A DNA stretch of 58,525 nt, counting the filler, from Sphacelaria rigidula (Eukaryota), in assembly GCA_964200075.2 (NCBI GenBank). It is 6 parts of 6 records of this genome, joined end to end, with 100 filler letters (N's around TTAATTAATTAA, not from the genome) between each part and the next. Parts side by side here need not be neighbours in the genome. Positions count along the whole stretch, not along the records: positions 29,315 to 38,985 come from CAXNAA020007994.1; 5 more parts are not named here. One strand, given 5' to 3'. Positions 6,901 to 48,855 of the stretch are shown piece by piece. The position numbers and the translations under genes were made by a program. How positions within the stretch are numbered: the stretch's first letter is position 1; each line of letters opens with the position of its first letter. The notes below the pieces were generated by a model, which ran no database searches, was not told the DNA's origin, and worked only from the letters and a program-made list of their open reading frames with translations.

Positions 6901-9587
6901 CGCCGTCTTGGGTAGGTTAAAGCCCACTACCTCCGATTTGGTCGATTTCCGCACTTTTGGTACTCGTGCGAAGCTCTTCGCGAAGACAACTCCAGTCACC
7001 CACCCAATCTCCGACAACACGCTCTCCCGGTCTGCCGCCCGCACCACCCCAACTGCCCCGCCGCCACCGGTAACACCTGCATATTCCACGAGCCACGCAG
7101 CACAAGTTCCACGGACCAACACACAACGCTCCGCGAAAACTCCTGCAACGTGCACAACGCGCCACGGACAATTTCCGCTGCGCACTGATACAGCCCCGCC
7201 GCCCACACCGGCACCGCAAACATCTACCGCTCCCGAGCACGGAAATGGCGAATTAGCTCCTGCTCCCGGGACATTTATTGACGTCGGCATTTCTGCCGCG
7301 TCGCCTATTCCCCCGCCGCCTGCCCCACCGTGTTCGATCGGCTCGCCAGCGGAAGGTCAACTACGCGAGTTTCTCGCCAGCTACTCTCACCGCGATTGGG
7401 CTTGCAAACAAAACACAGAACCGCTATGTCGTGCAGCCATCCGGTTCTTACAACTCGACTGTCCAGTCCCTTTTCCATCCACACTTCTGGCCCCGGTTGG
7501 CACACTGCCACCACCAGTTATTTCTGACGTATACGAGCTCGTGCGTAAAGGCCCCCTTTTTATTACGGATGAAGGTGTGCAACTACTCGTGCGTCGGCCC
7601 ACGCCTTTGACAGATGCAATTTCTGCCTCAACCACGGGACGCCACGCACGACTACTCGATGATGAACCAACGCGCATATATATCCAACACTTAATGCGCC
7701 CCGGGATCATGAAAGGCTGCCAGAGAGACTTGTCATCTCACCTTGGCGTCACCCGCACCGTAGCGCTCTTGGAATGCTTCTACTGGTGGGTTGGCATGGA
7801 AATTTCCACCCGCTTCTGGATTCGGCGATGCTTCAAATGCCAAGCTCGAAAGGCTTCACGACAGACAGTACGCTGGCCCGTCATCTCTATGGGACTCCCC
7901 AACGAGCCAGGCCACCTTGTGTCCTTTGACTACTGTGTCCCTCTACCGACCACAGGTCGCGGCAACACCTACATCTTACTCTTCACTGACCGCTTCAGCC
8001 GCCACGCGTCCATGTACGCGGTAACCGCCGCAGATTTCACTACCGCCGGAACGGCCGACATATTAGTCCACGACTACATTAAGCACTACGGCTGCCCAAA
8101 GCGACTCCTTTCAGACAATGGTCAGCCATTTTGCTCTGATCTCTCTGATGAGCTTTACAAGCTCCTGGGCATCCGCAACATTGCCACGAGCGCCTACTAC
8201 CCGAACGGTAACGGTGGTACCGAAAGAGTTAATCACACCATGGCCCAGATGCTCTCTATGGTTGTCAATGACCGCCAAAAATGACTGGGACCTACACCTC
8301 TCGCACATCATGTTGTCCTACAACAACTCGGTTAACGCCGCCACAGGCCTTTCTCCGAACGAACTCCATCTTGGACGTTACCCTCGGCTGCTCATCACCG
8401 TGTTTGAGCGCCACACGTTCGACGGCCACCAGGGATTGGATCAGGATCAGATATTCTAACACGAGCTAGCGCATGCACGACAACGCAAAGCGTTCACCCT
8501 CGTGCGCGAACAACACGCTATCAACGCCTCGCGCCTGTAGAGATCTAACACTGCTCTCTACAACCTCATGCACGAACGCCCTAACTGGAAAGTTGGTGAT
8601 TGGGTTTGGATCTACAAAAGTTTGTCGACCATCCGCCAAGGCATCAGCAAGGCAGCCAACGAGACAATTTTGAAGTCAAAATTGCCCCTCAATTGGACGG
8701 GACCATTCAAGATCCTGGCAGTCGGACCACCGTCACTATCACCGGATGATAAACTCGTTGGTGACAAACTGTTCCATGTCGACTTGCCTCGCGACTTGCA
8801 GGGCAAGGACACCGAACCCCGCGTCTCCGTGCACAGATACAAACCCTGCACGAACCCGCATGATACAAGCGACATGCCCAAGTACCTACCTGCCGGACTC
8901 ACACAGTATGTTCTCAACAGCTACTCGACCAAGCCCCCGCCCTACCACGTTACAACCGACGACGTGACGGAACAGCCCCTCCGGTTGACCGTGTCCTCCA
9001 CCTCCGGCCACCAGATAAACCGTTGTCGAGGTGGCAAAATTTCTGTCATGTCTAAGACACACTGGCACGGTCGTGGGAGAGCGTCTTGGGAACGCGAATC
9101 CGACCTTCAATTGTACCGCCGTGCAATCCTCCTGTACTGGACGCAATCCCAACATCAGCATCTTGCTCACAACAAGAAATATCGCAACATGCGTCGTGGC
9201 GCAGCAGCCCGCGAACTTCACCGCGATCAGGGATTACGCTTCGTCACCGATGGTTACGAACTTGTACTCACCAAGACTTGTAAGACGAAGTTCTTCGCAA
9301 ACCAGCGAATACTACCTGAGGGCAGCTACCTTTGGTTCAAAGGCAGCGATAACCTCTGGTGGTTGGGTCAGGCCCACTCCGCTAACCTGGTTTCGGCCGA
9401 CACATACATCGTGCGTTTCATCGATGACCCTGGACCCATACAGCTCAAGCTTCGGTCAGCACTACACACCACCAGTTCATCTGCACCACGCGGATCCTGG
9501 TGCCTCCAGCGCCTTGAGTCTCATGAACTTCGCCGCGGTCTCCAACGCAACATCGACCACACCCACGACGTCCACGCTCCGCTGTGA
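3980..9587 (+). mobile_element. Ty3/gypsy (chromovirus-like) retrotransposon pol, decayed: protease-RT-RNase H-integrase-chromodomain
   Basis: LLDIGS protease (3986); WASPLVVVPKKDG, RMPQG and YLDD (RT); YTDH..RVQRW..NADLLS (RNase H); HLGVTRT..CFKCQ, FDY, SDNG and GTERVN (integrase); WTGPF; KTHW..SWERE chromodomain. Several stops and frameshifts; gag and LTRs not seen. Confidence 0.95.
5168..5594. mobile_element. Non-autonomous hAT-like DNA transposon (MITE) nested in gypsy pol
   Basis: TIRs TAGAGCTTGGAAGTGGT / ACCATTTCCGAGCTCCA; 8-bp TSD ACATTCCT (5160-5167) / GCATCCCT (5595-5602). Removal restores in-frame GLIQHSSSSWASPLVV. Confidence 0.85.
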
Positions 9588-9672: not shown

Positions 9673-9772
9673 NNNNNNNNNNNNNNNNNNNNNNNNNNNN
9701 NNNNNNNNNNNNNNNNTTAATTAATTAANNNNNNNNNNNNNNNNNNNNNNNNNNNNNNNNNNNNNNNNNNNN
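9673..9772. other. Artificial contig linker (44 N + TTAATTAATTAA + 44 N)
   Basis: Exactly 100 nt with a six-frame stop core; repeated five times in the window. Confidence 0.99.
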
Positions 9773-19443: not shown

Positions 19444-19543
19444 NNNNNNNNNNNNNNNNNNNNNNNNNNNNNNNNNNNNNNNNNNNNTTAATTAATTAAN
19501 NNNNNNNNNNNNNNNNNNNNNNNNNNNNNNNNNNNNNNNNNNN
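19444..19543. other. Artificial contig linker
   Basis: N44-TTAATTAATTAA-N44. Confidence 0.99.
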
Positions 19544-29214: not shown

Positions 29215-29314
29215 NNNNNNNNNNNNNNNNNNNNNNNNNNNNNNNNNNNNNNNNNNNNTTAATTAATTAANNNNNNNNNNNNNNNNNNNNNNNNNNNNNN
29301 NNNNNNNNNNNNNN
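29215..29314. other. Artificial contig linker
   Basis: N44-TTAATTAATTAA-N44. Confidence 0.99.
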
Positions 29315-29810: not shown

Positions 29811-32589
29811 ACTGATCTCCCGTCACATGTGGATACAATTTCCAAAAACAAGGGTACAATTGGGAGAAAAGTAGTCACAGCAGGGTACACCGTGGTCGTC
29901 TACCGCCGCCGCCGGGTGAAAATGGTCGTTGGCCAATCAGCTGCTCTCATTTCTCCTCCAAACAAAGAGGGTACCCAGGTTCGTCGCTAATGCACCATGG
30001 TATACCCTACTGTGACGTTTGCCCATTTTTTTTCTTGGGATGTGTAGCGGATACAAATATCTTCATCTCCCCGATGTGATGAGCGGTGGCAAGCGAAACG
30101 AGCCCGGGAACATCGCCAATTACGAAAAAATCACAAAATGCCACAAAATGAATAGTTAGACCGCCCACTACTGTAGGAATACAGCAGTACAATACAGCAT
30201 AGCTATGCGACTTTAGCCAACTTGACGTTTGAACGGGACACTCTTCAGGCGGGAAGGAGCGCCGTCGGTGACAAACCACTTCATCTCGCCCCCTCCTATA
30301 TCACCATCCATCTCGTCTCTGCCGGCCTCACAATTTGTTTTCAACACGTTTGCCCAACTTCGTCCCTTACAAGTTATTGAAATCAAGGGAAAACTAACGT
30401 TGAAGTGTTCATCTGGATAGCGTGTACCAGACCGTGCCCAAGCGTCTGATGAGATGGGATTCTCCCCACTCATGCCATGACCCTTACCCCATGGGGCCGA
30501 TGAAAAATCCACTCTCCAATCCCGCCGTCACAGCTATGTGCAGGACATGTACGCACAGCCAATCCGCTCAGCGTGAATCTCTTGATCGTCAACATCAACA
30601 TCGTTCTCGGTGGTTTTCACAGGCGCGGCGCCGCTGCTCGTGATCTCCAAATTGTGCACTTTCTCGTTCTAGCACTACGACAAGCGCGCCTTTCACTGCA
30701 GTTGCGTGGGTGTGTGGCGGCCACAACTGCTGCTGTTCGTCTTCTTGTGTTGTTATCTTCGCAATGGCGGTAAACGTGAGGTGGCAGCTCGGGGGCGTGT
30801 GCTTCCCGAGTATAGTACAGCAGCTGGACACTAGTGCACCAAGAGATTCCACCCAGTGATCTGGAGCGATATTTCCGGAGAAACAGCATCATGTCAACAC
30901 CGCCCACTCACAGGCTTGAATTAGTGTACTAGAAATATAGTACATTTCATATGAGCCAGGTTGTTTTCAGGTGACGCGTCAATTTTTTATTTACATGATT
31001 CGCCCGATTACCGTCCAGTTCTTGCGCATATAACGTTCGTGACCCACTTTCCGGAAATTTAGTACCCAAAATCGGCCCCCATTCCCGCCCATAACAGTCG
31101 TACCATCCCACACAAACTGTTCAAGTGTGGGTAGGGCAGGTATTTCCAAATTTGAATTTGTGGACATGTGTGACTTGAAAGGGTTTGAAATGAAGGGCCC
31201 TCCCCACGTATTTGAAGTTGGAAATACCTGTCCGACCCCCATTTTACTAGGTTGACGGCCTGTCGAGGATGCGTTTACATTTGACGTACGAACATAGCCG
31301 TACAATGGAATAATGCAGCAGAAGCCGGGCATGAACGCGAGAACATGCCACATCTTAGACTGTATCCTATTTATTCTGCCGTGCTGCAGTGCAATACGTT
31401 TGTATTTGATATACGAACATAGCTGCAGTGGTTGTAGAATGCCGCATAGGTGTACAGGGGTACTGTCCCACACATGGCGTTCAAATGTGCGTCGGAAAGG
31501 TTTTTTCAAATTTGAATATGTGGGGAGATGTGAAGTGAAAATCTTTGAACTGAAGGGCTCCTATGCAATGCACGATTTCCCGAAACAACAGAGAACTCCC
31601 GCCAGGGATGACACGTGCTCCCTGCACTTCCCAACAGAGGATGAGTGCTATAGGGATGGCGCGCGAACGTGGTGGTATGTATAGAGTCAATACGACCAAC
31701 AAAAGTAGAAGCATAATACAGACGCCATGATGTTGCTTATTCCGGTACACGCCGCGCTCTCTACGTTGGCTTCGCTGTGCCGCTGGTTACGCAAAGTGGT
31801 AGCTCGTTTTGAAGTGTCTGCGGTGTCGCTTGCGCAGTGTAGTAGTGTGTTTATTTTGCAAGTCCTCTAACACGAAGGCGTTGCGTGTAACAGTTACGAA
31901 GGGGCCCTTTTTTCGGCATTACAGGGGTTTGTTTATTGTGCTCTTTCCCCCATTCCCCCCCGTTGCGCCCAGAAGAGCATCCCACAAGAGGGTCGTGGGC
32001 GTGGGTGTCCAATCGTGTGGCGATAAGGTGTGCTATATCGTTTGTATATGTAAAAGGATATGAAATGATGTTATAGGAAGAGGACGGGCAGGAAGGGGGC
32101 GTCCGACACAAGAAGAGGGTTTCGATTAAGATGTTGCTCCGAAAATGATTATTTGCTTCGACAAAGTATGGAAGAAGCGTAGTCGATTGATTTGATTTCA
32201 ATATCCAACGGAGAGACATGATGCTGATAAAAAATGGGATTGCGCCCGCAATACATCGTAATATTCCAATATAATCGACGAATATGTGCCGAAGACATGT
32301 TTCGTCCAGGGTTTAAAATGTTCGCATGACAGTATCATTGTGAGAATGAGTTGATAGTTCCAACGCACAGAAACCCCTTCACTTCTTTTCGCAGGTTTGA
32401 TTCTTGAACCAATGTAGCCTCCGCATGGCTACGCAAGAAGAGCTGTACGGTACCACCTACAAACGCTATGCAGCTCATCCACGCCGGAAAACCCTGCACA
32501 GGGTCACGAAACCTCGTCAGGGTGGTGTTCAGGGCGCTATTTGCGTTAGTGAAAGCCGTTCAGGCGCAGTAATGGCGACCTTTCACCAA

Positions 32590-32820
32590 ACTGTACAGTT
32601 GGCTTTCCCAATTTTCAAAATGGTTGTTGTGTCAGGCTATTCCAGGTCCGGCCTTAGATCTCTGTGACAGAAAGCATTCTCGTTCTTCTCGGGATACCTT
32701 TTGATGACACAAGGAGAACGTTTCGACAAACTGCTCGAACCATGACGCCATTATATGGAGTACAGGTTAGTACACTGAAAACAAGATAACTGTACAATGG
32801 TGTATGGAGTGCAGAGTACT
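32590..32820 (-). repeat. Dispersed repeat family copy (homologous to 39184-39400, opposite orientation)
   Basis: TTTCAAAATGGTTGTTGTGTCAGGC...CAGAAAGCATTCTCGTT aligns with the reverse complement of 39280-39365. Confidence 0.65.
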
Positions 32821-35688
32821 ATACAGAACACAAGACAACATGACAGCTCTGCAGTGTTTTTTTTTGTTTTGGAATGAAGACGGACTGAATACAGTATGTA
32901 TCAGCTTCTCTTGTTGCTAAATTAATCTTGCCGTGGCCGCGAGCGCTGGCGCCGATGCCAACGGCAGCAGCCGTCATGCTGACGGGTGCAAATACCCTGG
33001 CGGTGCAGTATATCCGCACAGTGCTGTGCCTCGCTCCTTTCATTGGAGCATGGGATCTGGCCCGGCCGGTCGAGCGGTGTATACTGGTGCTGGTTGCGTG
33101 CCTTTACCCAGCAGTGCTCGGTATCGTGCAAGTGATGGGTGCGGGTAACATAAAAAAAATAATTTTCAACAGTCAAGTGTGTAGACAGCACCGCGTCCTG
33201 ACTGATACCATATGTTACAGCTTGGTTACAGGGAGACGAAAACAACAAAACAGCACATCAAGCAATCTCAGCGGAGACCAAACCGTCTTCGCAAGGTCTA
33301 AACACACGCCAGAACAGTGATAGATACAGCACATGAGAGCGGAAGTGAGTGTGTTTGTGCTGCAGTACAGTGAGACAAGACATGTCCCATGTTTTAGTCT
33401 TTCGGCTGATTTCGAACGAGCCCTCAGTGCTTGCAGGGTGCTGATCTTGAACGCTCGGACATAATCGCCCTTCGCGCAAATAATTGTATTTTCGCCCAAG
33501 ATACAGGCAGCCATGACAGCAGCAGAGGCGACCTTTCACTCCTGCGGACGCAACCTGGGGCAAACGCACGCTGTAGCTACAACACGAAGAGCTTTACAAA
33601 ATGATATCCCGCGTGCACGTTGACCGCAGGTACAAGCAGTTGCGTGCATGATGTGGCGACCTGCATAGGACAGCGCGAAATCAATGCAGCACAGGGGTAG
33701 GCTGAGGATGTGGCGTTCTGTGGTGTGCTTTGTCACCGTGCACCCTGCCGCTGTGCAGTGAGCAGGTAGTACCACCGAAAGCGTAACCTCGCGATTGGTA
33801 CGAAGTGTCGAACCCATAGCAGCAAACAGCATATTTCTTGTACAACAGACGAGGATGTGTGTTTCAAGACCGATGCGCACAGAGTGGGACCCGTGTCTAG
33901 AGAAATCTGCACCAACTCGCCCTGTTCTTGTTGATGCCTGAATCAATTTAGCAAAAAACGCTTGTAACGTGTTCTGTGACGAATGTCATGCGCCATGCAG
34001 CTTTTTCCCATGTGCGGCATCGCCCGTGAAGCGAGCTGTTGAAGCTAACAGTGCCCAACCCTATTCCCGCGATGACCTCCTGTCTGAGCTCGAGATGATT
34101 GAAACTGCGGGAACATGACTTCAACTAGTTGAACGTTCACCTCACCGTGGTTAAAGCTTTCATATTATCGAAAAGGAACACTACTGTGAGGGCGTCTGTC
34201 TGTTCTATCCCTTTTCCATTCCATTCCAATGTAAGAAAGGAGGGGAAAATTGGAGGCGCGATGCGAAGCAGAGCAACCTATGAATTTATAGCCAGCACAG
34301 TATACCAGCGCTGACCTCACGTGATGCCCTGTACAGCACGATATGTGTGGCGACGTATGTGCAGGCTCACCACTGCAGTTAACCAACACCAGCAACAGCC
34401 ACAACACAGCACGACACAGCTGCTCATTCGTACACGCCGATGTTGAACATCAAGTGTATTTGTATATACAAGCTCTTGTGGAGCCCATCTAATACAAAAC
34501 ATGAAATCATGTCGATTCAGCGCAAACACTGAAAGAGCATGAAGTCGCGGGAACCAATTACTGCCTTGACACGCCATGTACTGCTTTGCCACGCCGGCCA
34601 GCAGATGATGGAACGTTTTGAGACATCACGCCACCGACGCACCGGCCGTATTCCGATAGTGCATTTCGGAGCTCTCGTGTCCACCCATGGTACTGCTGTT
34701 GCTACTTTACGTTGGCCGACGATGGTTAGGACACTCCTCCGATTTTATACAAAGATGAAAGACAACCTGACCCGGACGATGCACCCGAACGTGCCTTCGC
34801 ACGCCGGGGCGCACCTGCTGAACCGTTTTCCGGCGGCATTAATGCATGAATCGTGTCCCTGTTGGGCATCTAGGTGTTGTCGTGGCATATGGGCCGAGTG
34901 TGTATCGAGAGAATGACAGTAGCAGTGGTGGCTGTAATACTCTTCCAACTGTCTACTTTCTGTTGGAGTTCTGGCCTTCACGACGGCGGTATGGCACTTC
35001 AAAACTATGGAAAGAATCACAAATCTTCAACGAGTGGACGCAGTTGTTGAACAAATTGAACATCGCTGAAACTGTCGCAGAGGCCGCAGAGTGATCGTAA
35101 GAGCACAAAATCGTGGAACATTAGTTCCCGCTCAGTCGCTTCAGGTCTTGCCGGAGCTAAAGTTTGATCAAAACCTTCTGGCGAATCCTTGCTGGTGTAT
35201 TTTGGATGTCGATATCGTTACACCCGTTTTTGTATCGCCAGTGTTGGCGAGCTGTACGCAACAGATGAGCAACTGATTCTATATGAAGGCTTGCGCTGCC
35301 ACCACAACGACACCTGCCGTACATGCACTACATGTCTTCTTTCGATTTGTCCTGTAATAGTTCGACGTGACTTTTCTCACAAGCAATGATGCGGCCCGCG
35401 CATTTCTGCTGGCGCGGTTGAACATGGAAGCATCTCTCCTTCACCCACGGTTCACGATATATTTGCCACCGTCTGTTCATGCTACCATAAGCAGTTGGTT
35501 TCGACAACACGACGCGACGGAGCTGATCGCCGACGCTACGAGAAAGAGGCACATTAGCAAGAACCGCTACAAGGCCACAAGGCGGAGTTCTGTTCCAAGC
35601 ATGCCAGGGCAGGAATGGTGAATGTGGAGGGCAAGAAGAGCGGCGACGAGGGTTGCTCAAAGCATCCACCGTATGGTATTGCGGAAGC

Positions 35689-37440
35689 ATGAGAGCGGAG
35701 TTCTGCTTCATGCATTCCAGGGCGAGAATGGTGAAATTGGCGGGCAAGAAGTGCGGCGACGAGGGCTGCTCGAAGCATCCATCGTTCGGTGTAGCAGGAA
35801 GCAAGGAAGCGAAGTTCTGCTCTAAGCATGCCAGGGCGGGAATGGTGAATGTGGCGATCAGGAAGTGCGGCGACGAGGGCTGCTCCACGCGTTCATCGTA
35901 TGGTGTAGCGGGAAGCACGAAGGCGGACTTCTGCTCTAAGCATGCCAGGGCGGGAATGGTGAATGTGGCGATCAGGAAGTGCGGCGACAAGGCCTGCTCT
36001 AAGCAACCATCGTTCGGGGTAGCGGGAAGCAAGAAAGCGGAGTTCTGCTCTAAGCATGCCAGGGCGGGAATGGTGGTTGTGGTGAAATGGAAGCACAAGT
36101 GCGGCGACGAGGGCTGCTCCACGCGTTCATCGTATGGTGTAGCGGAAAGCACGAAGGCGGAGTTCTGCTTCAAGCATGCCAGGGCAGGAATGGTGAATGT
36201 GGTGAACAAGAGGTGCACCCACGAGGGCTGCTCCACGCGCCCATCATACGGTGCAGCAGGTACCACGAAAGCGGGGTTCTGCTCCAAGCATGCCAGGGCG
36301 GGAATGGTGAATGTGGTGGACAAGAAGTGCGGCGACGAGGGCTGCTCCACGCATCCGTCGTATGGTGTAGCGGGGAGCAAGAAAGCGGAGTTCTGTTCCA
36401 AGCATGCCAGGGCGGGAATGGTGGACGTGGCGAACAAGAAGTACGGCTACGAGGGCTGCTACACGCGTCCATCGTATGGTGTGGCGGGAAGCACGAAAGC
36501 GGAGTTCTGCTGCAAACATGCAAGAGCGGGAATGGTGGGGGTGGTGGCCAAGAAGTGCGGCGACGAAGGCTCCTCTAAGCATCCATCGTTCGATGTAGCG
36601 GGAAGCACAAAGGCCGAGTTCTGCTCCAAGTATACCATGGCGGGAATGGTGGATACACAGGAGAAGAGGTGCGGCGACGAGGACTGCTCCAAGAATCCGT
36701 TGTATGATGTCGCGGGTATTAAAGAGGCGACGTTCTGCTCTGTGGATGACAGGGCGGAAATGGCGAATGTGGTATACAAAGTGTGCGGCGGCGAGGAATG
36801 CTACAAGTGGGCTATCGACGCGAAGCATACCGTTGATGAGTCGAAGGTTTGCCGGCAGCACGCACGTGCACACACCACAGCCACAGTGTCCGACACCACG
36901 AAGCTCAGGATTAGGGAGGACACCCCCGACCGTAGCCCGACTGCGGGGGACGGAGGAAGCGTTGCCGATGTGCAGAGAGCGAAGCGCAAGCTTGCAGCGT
37001 CCTCTGGTTCCGTTGCAAACCACAGGGATAATGTTCGCCTTAGTGTTGCTTACGCCGGTCCCAGTCAGGGTTCAAGAATGCCATCGAACTCGGGGCACTC
37101 ACTTTCCAAGGCTGAGGGTGAAGTGGCATTGGGAGCAAGGGTAGGTGCAGGAATGAAGGTGGAATTGGAAATGCCTTCTTCCACACACGGTGGTGATGAG
37201 GTGGGGGAGTATCGCGAGCGCGCTGCCCCGTCGAGTGGTTGGAGATGCAAACGTGGTGACAATGGCTTCATGGTCAGTGGTGACGGGAGTATGGGGCGGC
37301 ACTGTGGTTCGCTGGCAGTGGTACCTGGACGCCTGGGCACATCTGACTATGTGGCTTTTGGAGAGGCAGGGGAGAATACAAATATAAAGTTGGAGTTGGG
37401 AGTTTCTGGTCCTTTTTTTCGGACGTCCGGTACACGGTAG
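35689..37440 (+). CDS. EsV-1-7 cysteine-rich repeat protein (583 aa from ATG 35689), intronless; an extra 1.5 repeats upstream (35579-35688) are out of frame
   Basis: Ten 38-aa units of type KKCGDEGCSKHPSFGVAGSKKAEFCSKHARAGMVNV (C-x4-C-x16-C-x2-H), the EsV-1-7 motif of phaeoviruses and brown algae, followed by a low-complexity tail. Confidence 0.9.
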   Translation: MRAEFCFMHSRARMVKLAGKKCGDEGCSKHPSFGVAGSKEAKFCSKHARAGMVNVAIRKCGDEGCSTRSSYGVAGSTKADFCSKHARAGMVNVAIRKCGDKACSKQPSFGVAGSKKAEFCSKHARAGMVVVVKWKHKCGDEGCSTRSSYGVAESTKAEFCFKHARAGMVNVVNKRCTHEGCSTRPSYGAAGTTKAGFCSKHARAGMVNVVDKKCGDEGCSTHPSYGVAGSKKAEFCSKHARAGMVDVANKKYGYEGCYTRPSYGVAGSTKAEFCCKHARAGMVGVVAKKCGDEGSSKHPSFDVAGSTKAEFCSKYTMAGMVDTQEKRCGDEDCSKNPLYDVAGIKEATFCSVDDRAEMANVVYKVCGGEECYKWAIDAKHTVDESKVCRQHARAHTTATVSDTTKLRIREDTPDRSPTAGDGGSVADVQRAKRKLAASSGSVANHRDNVRLSVAYAGPSQGSRMPSNSGHSLSKAEGEVALGARVGAGMKVELEMPSSTHGGDEVGEYRERAAPSSGWRCKRGDNGFMVSGDGSMGRHCGSLAVVPGRLGTSDYVAFGEAGENTNIKLELGVSGPFFRTSGTR

Positions 37441-38985: not shown

Positions 38986-39085
38986 NNNNNNNNNNNNNNN
39001 NNNNNNNNNNNNNNNNNNNNNNNNNNNNNTTAATTAATTAANNNNNNNNNNNNNNNNNNNNNNNNNNNNNNNNNNNNNNNNNNNN
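38986..39085. other. Artificial contig linker
   Basis: N44-TTAATTAATTAA-N44. Confidence 0.99.
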
Positions 39086-39963: not shown

Positions 39964-42900
39964 TTATTGAGGCGGTATTTCCATCGGAACATCTTCAACG
40001 CAATTAGTACTGTCTTCTATCCTATTATCAATTTCTGCGGTGTTCGCAGCTTCAGCTCGCTCTTCTTCTTCTCGCTGCTGTTGCTCGTATTTTTCTTTTC
40101 TGTAATACTCATGGTTGACTGAAGTCTCCGCGGCAAACAGCGCACAATACAGACGTTCATGTGCTCGACTTGCTCCAGCGGACTGCGCCCGACGGACTTT
40201 TGTCACCGCCATAGATGCATTGACTTGCGACACGCAAGTATGTAACGGCGACACCTTGCGGGGTTTTACGAGTGGGCCCCTGATACTCCTCGATTGCCTT
40301 GTCGTAGTATTTCCTCTGAAGATCTGATTCGGCCCCCAACAAGGCAGCGACGGTAATGGGCGCGCCTTTTTTCTCATGGCACCCGTCTTTCTCTTGTGAG
40401 CCTGGATTGCTGACCGTATCGTCACTCGAAGCTGGAACTGAGTAATTGAAGATTTTGGATTCGGCTCTGGGGGATCTCGGAGTCGTCTGAGGATCGCCAG
40501 CGGAGCGGCTGTCGGGACTCTCCCCATCCCAGCAACAACGCCCGGTGATGGCGACGACGCTACCACGGTAGACCCAGCAACAATCGGTAGCTCAGGAACC
40601 TTATGATGGCGACTGGGTCGTGGTTTGGCCGCTCCTGCGTTTACGCTTGTGGCAGGAGATCCGCCTTTGTTGGTATTCATTACCTGGTCTCGTCTACTGG
40701 ACACCCGATTTGTGATCATCTGTCTTGAAAAATTCGCTGTTCGTCTGGCAGAAGCCCGCCTCCGCGCTTGAGCCTGAATTTTTGTCGCCGCTCGCCTTTT
40801 GTTTTGTCCCTCATCATCACTATTATCCCAGGTTTTTTCATGTTTACACGAAGCATGCGTCCGTGACACGATATCTTCGCTGGAAGTTTTTCCCGAGTCC
40901 AATTCTTGACTCTCACAGCCGGCACTAAAGGGATGAAAAGGAGACGCGTCGACCCGGCGCTGGCGCATAGCCGCCTCGCTCTCCTTCACGGGGCGGTGTG
41001 ACATGCACCGACAGCAAGGTTTCTGTATTTGGGTCGCTGTGAGGTCCCGGGTGAGGCTATCGACCTCTCCCTTTGCCTCGATCTCCACATCTCCTCTGAC
41101 AGACACCGGTACTTCACAACCAAATTCGACACCATCCAAACATGCCTTGTACTGCAGCTTATCTGAACCGGTAGCTTGAGCGGAAGCGAAGCCTTCGGAT
41201 TCTACAGTTTTGTTCGTCTTCGCCGAAAGGGGTTCGAGCAAATCGCCTGATTTACACAGACAGTCGACATTACTCCCATCAGCTTCAACGATCTTCAGAT
41301 TATCCAAACCATAGTACCCACGTTTGCTCGAGTTTTCGGGGTTTTCCACGATGTATGCCAGCTCAATCGGAGCAAGCTCGCCTGAATCACCGCCGACTCT
41401 CAGTACGCTTTCTGTTTGACCATCAGATGGACTGCCAGCGTCATGTTTTCCTCCAGTCGAGCTTGCCCTGTCCAAAGCTACGTCGGCAACAACAGCAAAA
41501 TCCGCACCAGGAGATGTCTGGCGGTCCCGAGTTGCTTTGTTTTCTCGGTCGAGGCTCCTGTTGTAGGGCTTGCTTTGCTCATTCTCCTTCACTAGAATGT
41601 CAAACTCATTATGGTGGTCTTGTTGTCCCGATATCGCCACCAGTTTGTTACCAACTATCGCTTCTATTTCCCCCTGATGCGGTTGAAGCTGAGATTCGCT
41701 AACCGTACCGTCCCCTTTTCTTACTCCCGGAAATTGTGGGCTACAACGATTCTCCGCAGACGAGTTTCTCGCCGATTGATTCACTCCCCTGTTGACATCG
41801 TCGTGATTGCCGGTTTCTTTTCCCGCTGCCACATGTCCCTCATCCCTGCCACCAAGACCACAACCTGAAGGAGACATGTCGACTATGACATCGTCACTAC
41901 TGCACGTGTGCGTCAATAATTTGTCAGCCTTTCTGAATTTGACGTTTGTCGATAGGTTTTTGGCATTCCCATGTGACCTGTTGATGCGTCCGCACCCTAC
42001 GAACTCTATTTCTATGCCCACCGCCTCGATTTCGTCTTGTACCGTGATTTTAACCGTGCTGTCTTCACCAAGTTTGGTTTCAAAATCGATAGTGAAGCTA
42101 GGTATCTGCTCTGAATCTGATTTGGTACTTGACCTCGTGTCGATATTCTCGATGGCACTACCCTCGAATAGCTTGGACGGTGCTTCCTTCTCTATGCAAA
42201 ATTTAGGAGGGTCTCCTCGATATTCTGGTCCCTCCGGAGGCGACACGCCTACACACACTGTAGACTGCCCTTGCACATCTTGGATTGCGGAGTCGACGCA
42301 TGGTGGACTGTCGATGTTCGGTTTAGAGACCTGGGGGTGCATCTCGCTAAACCGTCTGGGCACCTGAGATCTAGCCGAGGCTGACGCTGCAGTGCAGGTT
42401 GGATCGCCGCCGGAACAAACAACGCTCTCGGGTTTACACCCGTGTCCTGCGCTGAGATCTCGGGGCGCGTGCTGTTGAGTGCTTCTGTTATCAGCCGGCT
42501 CACCACGCTGCGATGACAGCTCAGTAGAGCTGCTAGTGATTTCTGCGCCGTCCTCGCCAGAGACCGGTGCCGGCTCGTGTGCAGGGGGGCTGCCGCTGTA
42601 GGGTAGCCGCAAAACCGCACGATCCGGCGTCTCCTCCACGTCCACTCCAGTAGTATCTCCTCGACGTTTCGGTTCCACCGAAGGCGACACGCTTGGAAAC
42701 ACTTCGGACTGCCCCTGAATATCTTGCCCCACAGCATCAAGGCATAACGCACTATTGACATCCGGCTCAGAGACCTGAGGGTCCATCTTGTCCAACCTTC
42801 CGGGCAGTTGACATCCAGCCCAGGCTCCAGTACAGATCGAATCATCACCGGAACAAACAACGCTCTCGGAGCCGCATCCGTGTGCTACACTGGAATCTCC

Positions 42901-45900
42901 TGGATTGTGTTGATGCCTACCCCTATTCTCAGCCGGCTCACCACCTTGCGATGACAGCTCCGTAGAGCTTACAGTGATTGCTGCGCCGTACTTACAAGAC
43001 GCCGGCACCGCCTCGTGTGTAGGGGGGTCGCCGCTGAAGTCCGCACGGTCCCGCGTCTCCTCCACGTCGAGCCCAGTGAAATCTCCTCGATGTTCCGCTT
43101 TTACCGAAGGCGACACGATCCGAGACATCGCAGACCACCCCTGGACATTTTGAACTGCGGCGTCGACGCACAACGGACAGTCCCCGTCCGACTCAGGGAC
43201 CTTCGAACCGACCTCGTGCAACCGTCCGGGCAGCTGAGATCCAGCCGGAGCTGCAGTGCGGGTCGAATCGCCACTGAAAAAAACGATGCCTTTTGTGTCA
43301 CACCAGTGTGCTGCACTGGAATCTCGAGGCTCGTGCTGATGCTCGTTCCTGTTCTCGGTCGGTTCACCACGTCGCGGTGACAGCTCAGAAGTGCTGAGAG
43401 TGATAGTTACCCCGTCCTTACCAGAGATTGGCGCCGGCTCGTGTGCAGGGGGGTCGCCGCTTACCTCCGAGTGACCTTGCTCCTTGGTCACGTCCAGTGT
43501 AGTAGTGTCTCTTGGATGCTCCGGTTTCATCGACGGCGACACACCCGAAGACATTGCAGGCTGTCTTTGAATATCTTGACCCGCGACGTCGACGCATAGC
43601 GGATTGTCTACGTCGGGCTCAGAGATTCGAGGGTCGAACTCGCCCAACCGTCCTGGCAGTAGAGATCCAGCCAAGGCTGGAGTGCGGGTCGAATCGCCGC
43701 TGGAATAAACGACGCTCTCGGGTTCGCACCCGTGTCCTGGGGTGGGATCTCGGGGTGCGTGCTCCGGCCTGCTCCTGTTCCCGGACGGCTGATCACGCCG
43801 CGATGGCAGCTCAGTGGAGCTGACAGCGATCGTTGCGTCGTCCTCGCCAGAGACTGTCGTCGGCTTGCATGCGGGAGGGTAGCCGCTAAAGCCCGCACGG
43901 TCCCATGCCTCCTTCATACCCAGTTCAGTAGTATCTCCGCGACATTTCATTTGCACCGGAGGCGAAGCATATGAAGGCAGCACATTTTGCCGCTGGACGT
44001 CTTGACCTTCGGTGTCGACGCGTAGCGGACTGTCTTCGTCTGGCCCAGAGATTCTAGAGCTCACCCCAGACAACCGCCCAGGCGTTTGGGATCCAGCCGG
44101 GGCTAGAGTGCAGGTCGAATCGTCGCTGGAACGAGCAATTTCACACCCATGTGCTGCGCTGACATCTCGGGGCACGTGTTGTTGCTCGCTCCTATCCTCG
44201 ACTGGCTCACCACGCCGCGATGACAGCTCAGTGGAGCTGACAGTGATTGCTGCCCCGTCCTTGCCGGAGACCGGTGCCGACTCGTGTACATAAGAGTCGA
44301 AGCTACAGCCCGCACCGTCTCGTGTCTCCTCCAAGTCCAATCCAGTAGTATCTCCTCGATGTTTTGGTTCCACCGGACGGGACACGTCCGGAGACCCTGT
44401 TGACTGCCCCTGGACATCTTGGACTGCGGCGTCGACGCATTGCGGACTGCCTACGTCCGGCTCCGAGATTTGAGGAGCCATCTCATTCGACTGTACAGGC
44501 AGCTGAGATCCAGCCGAGGCTACACTGCAGCTCGAATCGTCGCTGGAACTAATAACGCTTTCGGCGTCATACTCTTGTGATACGCTGGAATCTCGGGGCT
44601 CGTGCTGCTGCCTGTTTCTGTCCTCTGTCGCCTCACTTCCCCGCCATGAGAGCTCAGAAGAGCTGGCAGTGACTGATACCCCGTCCTCGCGAGCGACCGT
44701 CGCCGGTTCGTATGCAGGGGCGTCGCCGCTGACTTCCGAATGGTCTCGATCCTCCGTTACGACTAGTGCACCGGTATCTCCTCCACATTTCCGTCCCGCC
44801 GGAGGCGACGTACATGAAGACACTGTAGAATGCCCATGGAAGGCCTGACCCGCGGCGTCGACGCGTAGCGGACTGTCTACGTCTGGCTCAGAGACTGGAT
44901 TGTCCACTTCGTCCGACCGTCCACGCGGCTGAGGTCCAGTCCAAGCTACAGCAAAGTTCGAACCGTCATTAGAAGTCACACCACACCCGTGTGCTGCGCT
45001 GGAATCTCGGGGCTCGTGTTGCTGCTTACCCCCATCGCCAATCGGCTCACCACGCCGCAATGACAGCTCAGTGGAGCTGACAGTGATTGCTGCCCCGTCC
45101 TCCCTAGAGTTCGATACCGACTTGTGTACAGAAGGGTCGCCGCTACAGCCCGCACCGTCTCGCGACTCTACATCCAGTTCAACATCATCTTCCTGACCTT
45201 CTGGTTCCAACGGAGCAGATGCGCCCGGAGACCCTGTTGACTGCCCCTGGACGTCGGCGCATAGCGGACTGTCTACGTCCGGCTCCGAGATCTGAGGAGC
45301 CATCTCATTCGACTGTACAGGCAGCCGAGATCCAGCCGAGGCTACACTGCAGCTCGAATCGTCGCTGGAACTAACTACGCTGTCGGCGTCGTACTCTTGT
45401 GCTGCATTGGAATCTCGGGGCTCGTGCTGCTGCCTATTTCTGCCCTCTGTCACCTCACTGCCCCGCCAAGAGAGCTCAGAAGAAGTGGCAGTGACTGCTG
45501 TCCCGTCCTCGCGAGCGACCGTCGCCGGCTCGTATGTAGGGGCGTCGCCGCTGAGTTCCAGACGGCTACGCGTCTCGTCCACGCTCAGTCTAGTTGTATA
45601 TTCGCGACGTTCGGATTCCACTGGAGGTGACACGCCCAGAGACGCGGTATACTTCCCGTGGTCGTCTTGACCCGTGGCGTCAACGCTAAGCGAACTGTCT
45701 ATTTCCGGCTCCGGCATCTCAGAGGCCAACTCGTCCAACCGTTCATGTAGCTGAGATGCAGCCGAGGCTGCAGTGCAGGTCGAGCTATTGCTAGAACAAA
45801 CAGTGCTTTCGGTGTGTCTTGCGCAGGAATCCCAAGGCCCGTGCTGCTTCTCGCTCCTGTCCTCTACCGGCTCACTACGCGGCACTGAGAGCTCAGCAGA

Positions 45901-48467
45901 GGTCACAGTGATTGCTTGCTTGTCCTCGCCAGAGATCGGCGCCGGCTCGCGCGCAGAGGCGTCGCCGCTGACTTCCGAGAGGCCCCGCGTCTCCTCCGCT
46001 CCCGGTGTAGCAGCATCTTCACGTTTCGGTTCCAAAGGAGGCGACACGCGTGAATGCACGGAAGACTGCACGTGGAACTCTCGGTCCGGGGCGTCGACCC
46101 ATTGCGGATTGTCTACGTTCGGCCGAGAGATTTGATGGTCCACCTCGTCTAACCGTCCAGGCAGCTGAGGTCGAGCCGAACCCGCAGTACAAGTCGAATC
46201 ATCGCTAGAAGCCGGACCGTGCTCGTCTTCTCTGCTTGAATCCCGGGGCTCGTGTTGCTGCTCGCTCCTGTCCTCGGGCAGCTCACCACCCTGTGATGAG
46301 AGTTCAGTGGTGCATGTTGTGAGCACGCCCCCGTCCTTGCTAGAAGCCAGGGCCGGCTCGTGTGCAGGGAGTTCGCCGCTGGAATTCAAACATTCCTCCC
46401 TCCGCAGTCGATTTTTCTGACCTCCCACGCGATTCTCGTTCGCTTTTCCTTCTTGTTGGGATCCTGTGGAGACATTCTCACCCATCATTTCCCTTCCCAT
46501 GTCTTCCTTCCACCGGGAATCATCACCGCAAATTAAGAGATCGTTGTCGCCATCTCTACTCTCGTTGCAGACCGCTCCGATTTCACCGCGTTCTTGTCTC
46601 TCGTTTTCCTCGCGAACACCTTCCCCTGGGATTCCACGAACTCCACCAGGGTACATGCAGATACCTCTGTGCTCGTTGATTTCGTCGCCCCCCTCACAAT
46701 TCAAGCTCCTTCTTTGGATTTGTTTCGCGTCAATTATCGCGCCTTCTCCGCCTAATTCAGCGTCGCCAACAGACAATGCCTCCCGTGTAGTGCCACCCTC
46801 GTCGATGACATCAGCAACGCCACGATCCGAGTCGACCCCACGACTACTGCTATCATCTTCCTGTTTCAAGATGCATGGATCTTTGGTACCCTCGCCAGCT
46901 GTCACCACCTTTCCACTGTCATCTCCTCGCACAGGTAACACGGAAGTAGATTTCATCGTTTCCACTTCGGCGCCTACATGCCTCTCTCCCTGGTCGTTAC
47001 AGTCAACCGACTCCTGCTCACTGTGCAGGCCATCGACAACTTCATTTTCGGCACCTGCCCAATTAGCCATGGAGCTAAAACGCTTGTCCATAACTTCCGT
47101 AAGTCCCTGTTCCAACAAAGCTACTGTCCTCGATGGAGAATTGCCTTGGCCGCTGGTGAAATCGCTGCCGATACCCAGACCATTTGCTTTTGGCAACTCC
47201 CTGTTCCCACATACTCCCTGATCTAGGCGAGCTTCCGTGCGAACAGCCCCAAGCATCTCTTCCAGACTGACAGATGGTGATAGAGTACTCGTTTCGCAGG
47301 GGGGAGTTTCGCTGCCGCACGGTGCACTGTTTTCGCGCCGGGGAGTACTGCTGGTCCGTGTGAAGGGTTCGTCGTTGTGACTGGCAGGCTCCTCGTTGTA
47401 ATGAGCTGCTTCTGCTGCGATTCGCTCCCTTAGTTCCTCAAGCCCCAGGGACTCGTCTTCGAAACTGCAGCCGTGAGTCGTTGCGAGGGGATAAGGTAGA
47501 CGCACAATAATGGGGGTGACATGTGCAGGAATACAGAGCGAGATGGAGCGAACCACAGCAGATGAAGGTCAGTACCGAGCTGCTTCGTTCTCTCACGTCT
47601 GAAGTTGACTTACACGTATTGACTGGGGTGGTTTGTCTAGGTTCTGGCGAGAGCAACAGACAAACTTTGCACAAGAAGCGCCGTGCGGTGTCGTGTGTCC
47701 GACGCAAACAACTTGATGCGCGTACTGTATTTTTGTGTTCTTCTGGTTGGGCGTCAGTTTCTCTTTTTTTTTTGTCGCACTTTGAACCCCTCCCCTTCCT
47801 CGGGACGAGTCCGTGGTCTCAAGGGAGCATCCTATCTCTCCCCCGGTACACGCCTTGCGTTTTGCTGTCGCGGATCCGGTCTGCACTCCCGCACCGCGTC
47901 AACTCACGTCAAACAAACTCAATCGACTACTTTGTTTGCTCACGTTCTCATGCTTTTCACGGTGGAAATAAGGTATTACGACGAAGAACCCAACGCGTCG
48001 GGAATGGAACCCTTGTTTTCTCCACCCTAATGGCGACAGTCGGACCATTACACCACTGGGGCGCGGCATTTTGATACCTGAATACACGACATATTGACGG
48101 CTGATCTGTAGTCTGATCCCATATCAACAGAACAGCCTGAGCAACTGTTTCCAAGTCAAATATTTCTATAGAGCGTACTCAACATGGCTTCTGGCATGCC
48201 ACAGGAATATTACACTGCACGACGCCGTGCTCTTAACGCAACATGTTATTCAACATGTGTTGTACCTGAAGTCAACCGTTTCCTCAACACCGGGAAAGTC
48301 CAGTACCGAATCCTGCGTTGGAAGCTCCTGGCAGTCGGAGAGAAACTCATGCTCCAGCGCACGCTTGGCCGAGAGGCGGAGATTTACGTTCAAGTCTAAA
48401 GTCTTCCTCAGCAAATCTAGCGCACCCGTTTCGACCTCAGATGGTACCAAATCCTCCAAAGCCGGTC
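39964..48467 (-). CDS. 3' part of a MAP kinase-like gene with a giant C-terminal extension. Exons 48467-48266 and 47464-39964 (>2560 aa visible); kinase core lies beyond the contig end
   Basis: The first exon gives kinase subdomain XI (ALDLLRKTLDLNVNLRLSAKRALEHEFL). A phase-2 GT-AG intron joins it to DF|SFEDESLGLEELRERIAAEAAHY, the MAPK C-terminal L16 pattern. Then a 7.5-kb stop-free exon with ten ~140-aa repeats and the IQ motif AATKIQAQARRRASARR (40741-40795). Confidence 0.85.
42200..46385 (-). repeat. Coding tandem repeat, ten units of ~410-440 bp
   Basis: SGD(P/A)PxHEPA..DG..IT.SSTELS.RGE..R.QQHEPRD..S.DS.C..A..QLPGR..SEPDVDSP.CVD..VSPP recurs ten times. Confidence 0.95.
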
Positions 48468-48755: not shown

Positions 48756-48855
48756 NNNNNNNNNNNNNNNNNNNNNNNNNNNNNNNNNNNNNNNNNNNNT
48801 TAATTAATTAANNNNNNNNNNNNNNNNNNNNNNNNNNNNNNNNNNNNNNNNNNNN
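48756..48855. other. Artificial contig linker
   Basis: N44-TTAATTAATTAA-N44. Confidence 0.99.

Follow-up and report, generated by a model that had tools for sequence, protein, structure and literature searches.

An EsV-1-7 repeat gene of Sphacelaria rigidula belongs to a large subfamily whose units vary most at two positions

EsV-1-7 repeats and comparable modular systems

Published accounts describe the EsV-1-7 family as expanded in brown algae, lying in tandem clusters and without other Pfam domains. According to these accounts, it is the largest brown algal orthogroup, includes the developmental regulator IMMEDIATE UPRIGHT (IMM), and has already been put forward as a candidate new class of zinc fingers, its members being hypothesised to be transcription factors. 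No per-position analysis of EsV-1-7 units turned up in the literature that we searched. Here we describe a gene of this family in the brown alga Sphacelaria rigidula (assembly GCA_964200075.2), within an analysed stretch of 58,525 nucleotides joined from six parts of the genome (the window); the gene lies on the plus strand of the part from CAXNAA020007994.1. It has the same repeat as Ectocarpus IMM. However, IMM is described as having five repeats preceded by an N-terminal domain of its own, whereas the window subfamily has long arrays and a shared tail with NLS-like and psi-K-x-E motifs, and the window ORF begins inside the array without the IMM-specific N-terminal domain (a comparison made by description).

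TALE proteins resemble these arrays in being built head to tail from almost identical repeats of comparable length, each with two residues that vary strongly. Their 34-residue RVD repeat is helical and zinc-free, its two RVD residues are adjacent, and each repeat reads one base, whereas the present unit carries zinc ligands, has no TALE Pfam match, and has its two fastest sites (positions 9 and 36, counted from the first Cys) 11 residues apart across the zinc knuckle; a one-repeat-one-base rule for it would be hypothetical. In tandem C2H2 ZNF proteins, including PRDM9, a 28-residue beta-beta-alpha finger is combined with effector domains such as KRAB and SET; in contrast, the unit here is a 38-residue CCCH module with no C2H2 Pfam match, Pfam finds no such effector in the window protein, and DNA binding is putative. 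KRAB-ZNF and FiNZ-ZNF genes likewise represent lineage-specific expansions of tandem zinc modules, and published work on them reports hundreds of paralogs, with entropy highest at base-contacting positions and positive selection in some clades (PMC10547256). In giant viruses, homologous EsV-1-7 arrays, whose residues at 9 and 36 resemble those found here, are joined to a Vsr/EDxHD-like nuclease, a domain that the window protein lacks. In I-Bth0305I (PDB 3R3P), NUMOD DNA-binding motifs hold the N-terminal place that is taken by arrays in these fused homologs.

Anatomy and state of the window copy

The window gene is an EsV-1-7 (PF19114) family gene, and its array is real, if less tidy than first described. 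TRF places a repeat of period 114 at 35582–36807 (10.7 copies, 79% matches, score 1327), and Pfam EsV_1_7_cys matches the array in 10 stretches (E 3.8e-124, 404.6 bits against a cut-off of 25), which bears out the family assigned by a sequence-only reading of the locus; the ten six-residue patch states listed by that reading are also all present, in the same order. Its description of eleven 114-bp units holds for the repeat and its period, but not for a uniform length: unit 1 (35639–35751) has 113 bp, a base being missing near 35683, which changes the frame and gives TGA at 35690–35692, and unit 4 is 120 bp, with a linker longer by two residues. Assembly error as the cause of the unit 1 frameshift was ruled out, since contigs of all four runs aligned here span 35600–35760 without gaps. 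Because unit 1 is one base short, the first listed patch state falls out of the main ORF frame.

The near-invariance proposed for the scaffold also fails at the ligands. The ligands of the tandem C-x4-C...C-x2-H units are intact in the cap and in units 2–7 (35752–36441), the latter being six C-x4-C-x16-C-x2-H modules, variable at positions 9 and 36, that are seen in the Pfam match, the unit alignment and the structure model. They are broken in unit 1, where Ser replaces the first Cys, and in the degenerate units 8–10 (36442–36783), which in the unit alignment lack one or two ligands each: the first Cys is Tyr in unit 8, unit 9 is without the second Cys and the His, and unit 10 is without the His. 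Unit 11 (36784–36861) is a divergent cap, of a form common to close paralogs. Variation was also said to be concentrated in the patch after the second Cys; among window units 1–10 the most variable column is instead position 36, which lies three residues ahead of the first Cys and has 8 residues and a pairwise difference of 0.96, and position 9 (4 residues, 0.73) is equalled by positions 33 and 35.

The gene looks spliced and transcribed, the RNA status of runs X5 and X6 being our guess. One contig of run X5 links 33765 to 35495 by a GT..AG joint, with 33 letters on its short side. It marks a probable upstream (5' UTR) exon end at 33733–33765, in high-copy repeat DNA, of approximate start and uncertain placement, and a 5' UTR intron at 33766–35494. 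This intron is of spliceosomal type with a conserved acceptor, its CAG being kept in 44 of the 47 loci with an alignable region (of 101 loci), and its 3' part matches paralogs at 64–82%. The leader that follows (35495–35688) is a decayed 5' part of the array: the ancestral start position reads ATC (35526–35528), a half unit stands there in a different frame, and four out-of-frame ATGs occur at 35601, 35615, 35622 and 35673. The main ORF (35689–37440) encodes 583 residues from the first in-frame ATG, inside the array and 21 residues ahead of the first Cys of unit 2, with further in-frame ATGs as alternatives at 35710 and 35728; run X4, from another individual, has ACG at 35689. Two other ORFs scanned on the same short 9.7-kb contig gave zero Pfam matches.

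The first unit and the last three of this copy are lost, and it probably yields either a truncated protein of six fingers or hardly any protein. It may even be a transcribed pseudogene, a possibility that we hold tentatively and for this copy only, whatever the family does. The lost start, the two frame breaks, the upstream ATGs and the ACG allele would fit such a state, as would the ligands lost in three 3' units (against 680 of 700 inner units intact in unbroken arrays) and a tail omega of 0.70 and 0.90 in comparison with the two nearest paralogs; however, the 583-codon ORF stays open up to the family-typical end with all three tail motifs kept. Many family members show decay at the 5' end, these two paralogs likewise having ATC and breaks, at least one upstream ATG is found in 30 of 45 loci, and a near-neutral tail is the family norm (median omega 0.85 over the whole tail). 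As a damaged member, the window copy is a poor choice for a binding test.

Variation across the repeat unit

The same tail occurs on at least 105 contigs of the S. rigidula genome, and arrays of this subfamily hold a median of 14 matched units (range 4–28) in one coding exon, the units being basic (mean charge figure +3.2). Across 74 unbroken arrays of 38-residue units, positions 9 and 36 stand out. The Cys/His ligands are fixed at 97–98% across 1197 units, and these two positions exceed all others in entropy (3.16 and 3.20 bits) and in within-array difference (0.74 and 0.76). As the earlier reading had supposed, variation across the unit is uneven in the family-wide test. The ratio of pN to array-wide pS is 1.60 (1.50–1.70) at 9 and 1.51 (1.40–1.62) at 36, and elsewhere exceeds 1 only at position 35 (1.27), with a unit average of 0.53. 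Among near-identical unit pairs (at most six differences outside the tested codon), the first/second-base difference is 0.23 for codon 9 and 0.22 for codon 36 against a fourfold-site mean of 0.10, about twice as fast; the fastest single fourfold site (0.24) equals them.

In the ML codon model, nonsynonymous change runs at 1.6–2.5 times (position 9) and 1.3–2.1 times (position 36) the synonymous rate of the whole array; tree-based rates of this kind can be raised artificially by gene conversion between units. The site-own omega is 1.76 at 9 and 1.59 at 36 under equal codon frequencies, 1.32 (p 0.064) and 1.11 (p 0.31) under GC3-based frequencies, and 0.94 and 0.87 in a repeat GC3 fit that did not converge. 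Top variation at 9 and 36 is robust, and positive selection there is model-dependent, supported by one codon model and not by another. The expectation that the variation would prove other than neutral stands as regards rates above the array-wide synonymous rate; for a site omega above 1, it held up under equal frequencies only.

As the candidate recognition site, the variable patch fared unevenly: its position 9 is among the two fastest, its K/T position 8 was discarded as a fast code position because it is under purifying selection (site omega 0.34–0.72), and position 36 had been overlooked. CpG hypermutation was ruled out as the source of the variation (fourfold diversity 0.223 against 0.216, CpG o/e 1.0). 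The residues R/K/H/Q/N/S/T/D make up 77% at position 9 and 89% at 36, while G/A/P/V account for 3% and 7%, in GC-rich genes.

The unit model is a 38-residue CCCH module with one helical turn, no recognition helix and no long helices, and DSSP, applied to two models, assigns a beta-bridge at residues 38 and 9 in 2 of 5 modules of one and 3 of 7 of the other. The array model (five modules, pLDDT 67), at a pTM of 0.32, does not establish a common face for the variable residues. Against treble-clef zinc domains (RING, PHD, LIM, B-box), the module reached at best Z 2.5 (rmsd 3.9, 44 aligned), below significance, and Foldseek returned E of 0.83 or more; both searches used the five-module model, and their lack of a significant match implies neither a new nor a different fold. 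Sequence searches for a solved structure gave none for the window array, a single match at E 2.2 for a profile of the fused homologs, and unrelated matches (E of 0.44 or more) for the nuclease domain alone. The NCBIfam scan gave nothing useful, and an ESM Atlas feature search skipping PF19114 gave no usable match. Similarity to Zf_WRKY19 in homologs was set aside, being restricted to the first knuckle.

Tail motifs, nuclease fusions and possible function

The tail of the window protein is low-complexity and lacks an E-x-D-E-x-x-H motif. A basic cluster that we take to be NLS-like (36976–36996) is among its best-kept columns and is found in 85 of 92 complete tails. Tail comparison also gave two psi-K-x-E motifs (37153–37164 and 37384–37395), presumably matching the SUMO-acceptor consensus; at least one such motif occurs in 91 of 92 tails (8.4 in shuffles) and at least two in 78 of 92 (0.26 in shuffles), and other non-nuclease homologs have it in 25 of 50 (4.8 in shuffles). 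Among longer homologs, fusions to other domains (RdRP, mTERF, EF-hand, RT, copia gag) are isolated cases, some of them probably artefacts of joined gene models, and no chromatin effector recurs.

A C-terminal E-x-D-E-x-x-H domain is present in 33 of the 120 homologs listed (30 by a stricter pattern). Its model best matches the homing endonuclease I-Bth0305I (Z 7.8, rmsd 3.3, 96 of 98 aligned), a score in the range of common arrangements and tied by an RNA-associated RAP domain (Z 7.3). The domain keeps D, E-x-D and H residues of catalytic type, which Vsr-like EDxHD DNA endonucleases also have. Nuclease-fused arrays have R/Q/H/T at 9 and N/S/H/T/D at 36, similar to host arrays; in divergent ones many positions vary, with position 11 as variable as 9 and 36. 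A search of the S. rigidula genome with one query gave no match to the nuclease domain, which is not proof of absence. An Ectocarpus Mariner transposase also carries an N-terminal EsV-1-7 domain (PMC12477816). The nuclease fusions and the NLS/SUMO-like tail motifs lend independent support to nuclear DNA binding.

With moderate confidence, we read the window gene as a gene of the host, in a large EsV-1-7 subfamily that has expanded in its lineage; it would encode a nuclear, modular nucleic-acid-binding protein, its target most likely DNA, and the family would work much as the tandem C2H2-ZNF expansions do. A single zinc, held by C1, C6, C23 and H26, would organise the fold of each unit, and successive units would be strung like beads along the target. 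A per-repeat recognition code is hypothesised, in which residues 9 and 36, near the unit junction and with the help of 8, 35 and 38, would set the preference of each unit. The disordered tail would direct the protein to the nucleus and, through its two SUMO-type sites, could bring in repressors; duplicated genes, shuffled units and rapid change at positions 9 and 36 would be the sources of new specificities.

On one hand, the basic surface might bind DNA or RNA with little sequence preference, with 9 and 36 merely exposed and unconstrained and no code at all, as suggested by a site-own omega near 1 with GC3 frequencies, a fourfold site as variable as both codons, weak covariation between 9 and 36 (excess MI 0.05 bits), and the greatest specificity of I-Bth0305I lying near the cut, with little further off (PMC3239194). 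We consider this unlikely, given that in each of the four analyses the rates at both positions lie above the array-wide synonymous rate, and that the restricted residue set is similar between host and nuclease-fused arrays.

On the other hand, the arrays might be diversified protein-recognition surfaces rather than nucleic-acid readers, such as sensors of viral or parasite proteins or nuclear-complex adaptors. Fast change at fixed surface positions also suits an immune-type receptor, and the sole weak structural neighbours (Z at most 2.5) are protein-binding zinc domains; however, these matches are below significance, the units are strongly basic, and homologous arrays precede a nuclease fold and also occur on a transposase, which makes such a role quite improbable. 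Similarly improbable is an RNA target, read by a PPR/PUF-like or CCCH-type modular array: the CCCH ligand set and the near-equal RAP match of the fused domain would suit it, but the D, E-x-D and H residues conserved in that domain are those of DNA endonucleases.

As far as is known, brown algae largely lack DNA methylation. A bolder extension of our reading as a DNA-binding protein, which we regard as doubtful, is that EsV-1-7 is a programmable DNA-reading scaffold with its code at 9 and 36, which aims nucleases in giant viruses and in brown algae supplies KRAB-ZNF-like, SUMO-dependent repressors tracking transposons and viral inserts; brown algae would have adopted the array without the nuclease and then expanded the family. 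The analysis singles out targets for mutation, namely two residues in each unit and three motifs in the tail, and a single genome offers more than 100 natural array variants, so DAP-seq can address the function of EsV-1-7 directly. Should there be a code, the family would add a new programmable scaffold for DNA binding and would parallel the metazoan ZNF expansions independently.

The EsV-1-7 family and its copy in the window

The EsV-1-7 family is the largest orthogroup in brown algae, occurs in Ectocarpus with no other Pfam domain, and is expressed preferentially in unicellular stages (10.64898/2026.04.27.720984). A role as transcription factors of a zinc-finger type has been put forward for these proteins (Macaisne 2017, cited in 10.1101/2025.04.25.649966). 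The molecular function of IMMEDIATE UPRIGHT (IMM), an Ectocarpus member, is unknown (PMC7457493; see also PMC12993054), and a Mariner transposase carries an EsV-1-7 domain (PMC12477816). Searches of the open-access literature turned up no study of selection on single positions of EsV-1-7 repeats, no motifs in the tails and no measurements of binding.

The window copy is a partly damaged member of this known family. Its tandem array (35582-36807; period 114, 10.7 copies, 79% matches) matches Pfam EsV_1_7_cys at E 3.8e-124. With each 38-aa unit numbered from its first Cys, zinc would be bound by C1, C6, C23 and H26; units 2-7 and unit 11, a divergent cap, have all four. The sequence-only reading had described eleven regular 114-bp units on a near-invariant scaffold, with ten states of a variable patch. 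On re-reading, all ten states are correct and the array is present, but the 113-bp length of unit 1 causes a frameshift that brings in a TGA at 35690-35692, unit 4 is 120 bp, and one or two presumed ligands are missing in units 1, 8, 9 and 10. Position 36 is the most variable column inside the array.

The array's contig spans 29315-38985. The window consists of separate contigs joined by N runs round a fixed 12-base linker (9673-9772, 19444-19543, 29215-29314, 38986-39085 and 48756-48855), and because of this joining distant neighbours need not be linked to the array. Elsewhere in the window lie an LTR retrotransposon at 5566-8284 (+), whose ORFs (reverse transcriptase, RNase H, integrase) follow a gypsy-like order, a 63-bp tandem repeat of 5.7 copies at 2563-2924, and a low-complexity open frame of 2534 codons at 39964-47568 (-), which contains degenerate repeats of ~150 aa and for which a Pfam search gave no match.

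Gene structure and 5' decay

The main ORF (35689-37440) encodes 583 aa. Contigs from 4 of the 11 listed sequencing runs, no run being recorded as RNA, were placed on 32500-35760. In X5 and X6, small assemblies from two studies, contigs begin at 35493, with a depth of 177-223 against 0-6 immediately upstream. A single X5 contig bridges 33765 and 35495; the skipped stretch has GT..AG ends, and the contig's short side is 33 letters, within repeat DNA. The CAG acceptor is conserved in 44 of the 47 loci, among 101, where the region could be aligned. From these contigs, we read the gene as spliced and transcribed, with a 5' UTR intron and a single coding exon. The probable first exon maps inside high-copy repeat DNA (32600-34350), and the promoter may therefore be repeat-derived. 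About 800 bp of 5' intron, at 35431, are present in the two closest paralogs (L041 and L042) and missing from the window copy.

The frameshift was found in all four runs examined. In one of them, the DNA-like X4, ACG replaces the first in-frame ATG. The ancestral start is ATC in the window copy and in both closest paralogs, which likewise have 5' breaks; over the 27 loci with the motif, it is ATG in 18, ACG in 6 and ATC in 3. Four out-of-frame ATGs lie upstream of the main ORF, and at least one does so in 30 of 45 comparable loci. Given these start-codon losses, 5' breaks and upstream ATGs among paralogs, and a Met in every unit, 5' decay with restart at a per-unit Met is common in the family, and the window copy is worse damaged than most. 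The stop of a 25-codon upstream ORF (35615-35692) shares bases with the main start codon (ATGA), which could allow reinitiation or be chance. As for this copy by itself, we think a transcribed pseudogene a serious possibility, though we lean against it.

Variation and selection within the unit

A PF19114 search of the genome of Sphacelaria rigidula, the species to which the best named homologs are assigned, gave 4575 candidates, and all 150 that were scored lay above the cut-off. With the tail of the window gene as query, 107 matches came up, spread over 105 contigs. Besides the window's own contig, 100 of the remaining 104 were taken in, for 101 arrays in all, 20 of them with a stop or frameshift. 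Units were those fitting the scaffold pattern with at most five mismatches and followed by the next exactly 38 residues on (n = 1197), leaving out last units and units with indels. Selection tests used 953 units from 74 arrays with at least six units and no stop or frameshift flag. In L041 (G000:C124), multi-unit blocks recur within the array, which shows that it grew by duplication of several units at a time.

The ligands are 97-98% fixed over the 1197 units, and entropy is highest at positions 9 (3.16 bits) and 36 (3.20 bits), as is within-array difference (0.74 and 0.76), followed by 35, 38, 3 and 33. The ratio of pairwise pN to array-wide pS averages 0.53 across the unit but is 1.60 [1.50-1.70] at 9, 1.51 [1.40-1.62] at 36 and 1.27 at 35, and below 1 at all others. 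Second-base diversity is 2.1 times that of the mean fourfold site at codon 9 and 1.9 times at codon 36; that mean is also exceeded at certain individual bases in codons 3, 24, 33, 35 and 38. Pairs of near-identical units, with six or fewer differences beyond the codon under test, were also compared (~110 pairs from 36-39 arrays). Here the first two bases differ at a rate of 0.23 in codon 9 and 0.22 in codon 36, fourfold sites average 0.10 and reach 0.24 at most, and CpG context had no effect on differences in these pairs. Positions 9 and 36 are thus robustly the fastest sites of the unit. The comparison of these arrays bears out the uneven variation that the sequence-only reading expected, with 9 among the two fastest sites, but that reading had missed 36, and omega at its favored K/T position (8) is 0.34-0.72.

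In a pooled codon model, with gene conversion outside the model, the nonsynonymous rate with equal frequencies is 2.5 times (9) and 2.1 times (36) the array-wide synonymous rate, and it stays above that rate when third-position frequencies are used (1.6-1.7 times and 1.3 times). When each site is judged by its own synonymous rate instead, equal frequencies give an omega of 1.76 (9) and 1.59 (36), with LRT 26 and 29. Third-position frequencies give 1.32 (p 0.064) and 1.11 (p 0.31); a repeat fit, which did not converge, gave 0.94 and 0.87. Positive selection at 9 and 36 is likely but falls short of proof. Residue 9 covaries only weakly with the 36 before it (0.05 bits, z 3-4).

Tails, nuclease fusions and a proposed function

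Of the 101 tails, 92 are complete with 200 aa or more. Their overall omega is ~0.85, but three islands are conserved, comprising a basic cluster and psi-K-x-E motifs, which we label NLS- and SUMO-like, respectively, after consensus motifs. The basic cluster occurs in 85 of 92 tails, psi-K-x-E at least once in 91 (shuffles 8.4) and at least twice in 78 (shuffles 0.26), counts that are not independent because tails share ancestry. The tails of 50 other non-nuclease homologs have psi-K-x-E in 25 (shuffles 4.8) and the basic cluster in 36 (shuffles 11.1); psi-K-x-E is found in 1 of 33 nuclease-fused proteins.

Among the 120 homologs listed of 181 found, a C-terminal P-D...E-x-D-E-x-x-H domain follows the array in 30 (strict pattern) or 33 (looser), and its Atlas neighbors are Nucleocytoviricota clusters. 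The model of homolog P0043 (pLDDT 83) best matches I-Bth0305I (Z 7.8, rmsd 3.3, 96 aligned of 98), but several others tie with it to within 1 Z, among them a RAP domain (7.3) and a putative endonuclease (6.9); Vsr scores Z 6.7, and Foldseek lists PD-(D/E)xK nucleases at E of at least 0.009. In I-Bth0305I, NUMOD DNA-binding motifs occupy the N-terminal place (PMC3239194). Across 124 units from 22 fused arrays, the residue sets at position 9 (R31/Q19/H10/T8) and position 36 (N29/S21/H19/T7/D6) are close to those of host arrays (Q23/R20/H15/K12 and N28/S16/K10/H10/D7), although many other positions vary too in fused arrays. Single homologs combine the repeats with RdRP, mTERF, copia gag, RT or EF-hand (P0178, P0181, P0116, P0170 and P0153), which may be gene-model joins.

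A five-module model (129 sequences; pLDDT 67, pTM 0.32) predicts small beta-bridged modules with a single helical turn at C23-H26, and sequence and fold searches matched no solved structure for the array. DSSP bridges involve residues 38 and 9 in 2 of its 5 modules and in 3 of the 7 modules modeled for P0043; if these two pair together, patches 35-38 and 8-9 would meet at the zinc-knuckle base. We somewhat favor a nuclear, modular DNA-binding protein, in which residues 9 and 36 would mainly set each unit's preference and the tail would bring in partners through SUMO. Low-specificity binding, with 9 and 36 as free surface sites, seems unlikely to us; that the arrays recognize protein is improbable, and that they read RNA at least as improbable. 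Fish FiNZ-ZNFs show a similar variation pattern (PMC10547256), though the EsV-1-7 module is not a C2H2 finger. The value lies in this signature at the level of the family, through which the function of EsV-1-7 proteins becomes open to a concrete test.
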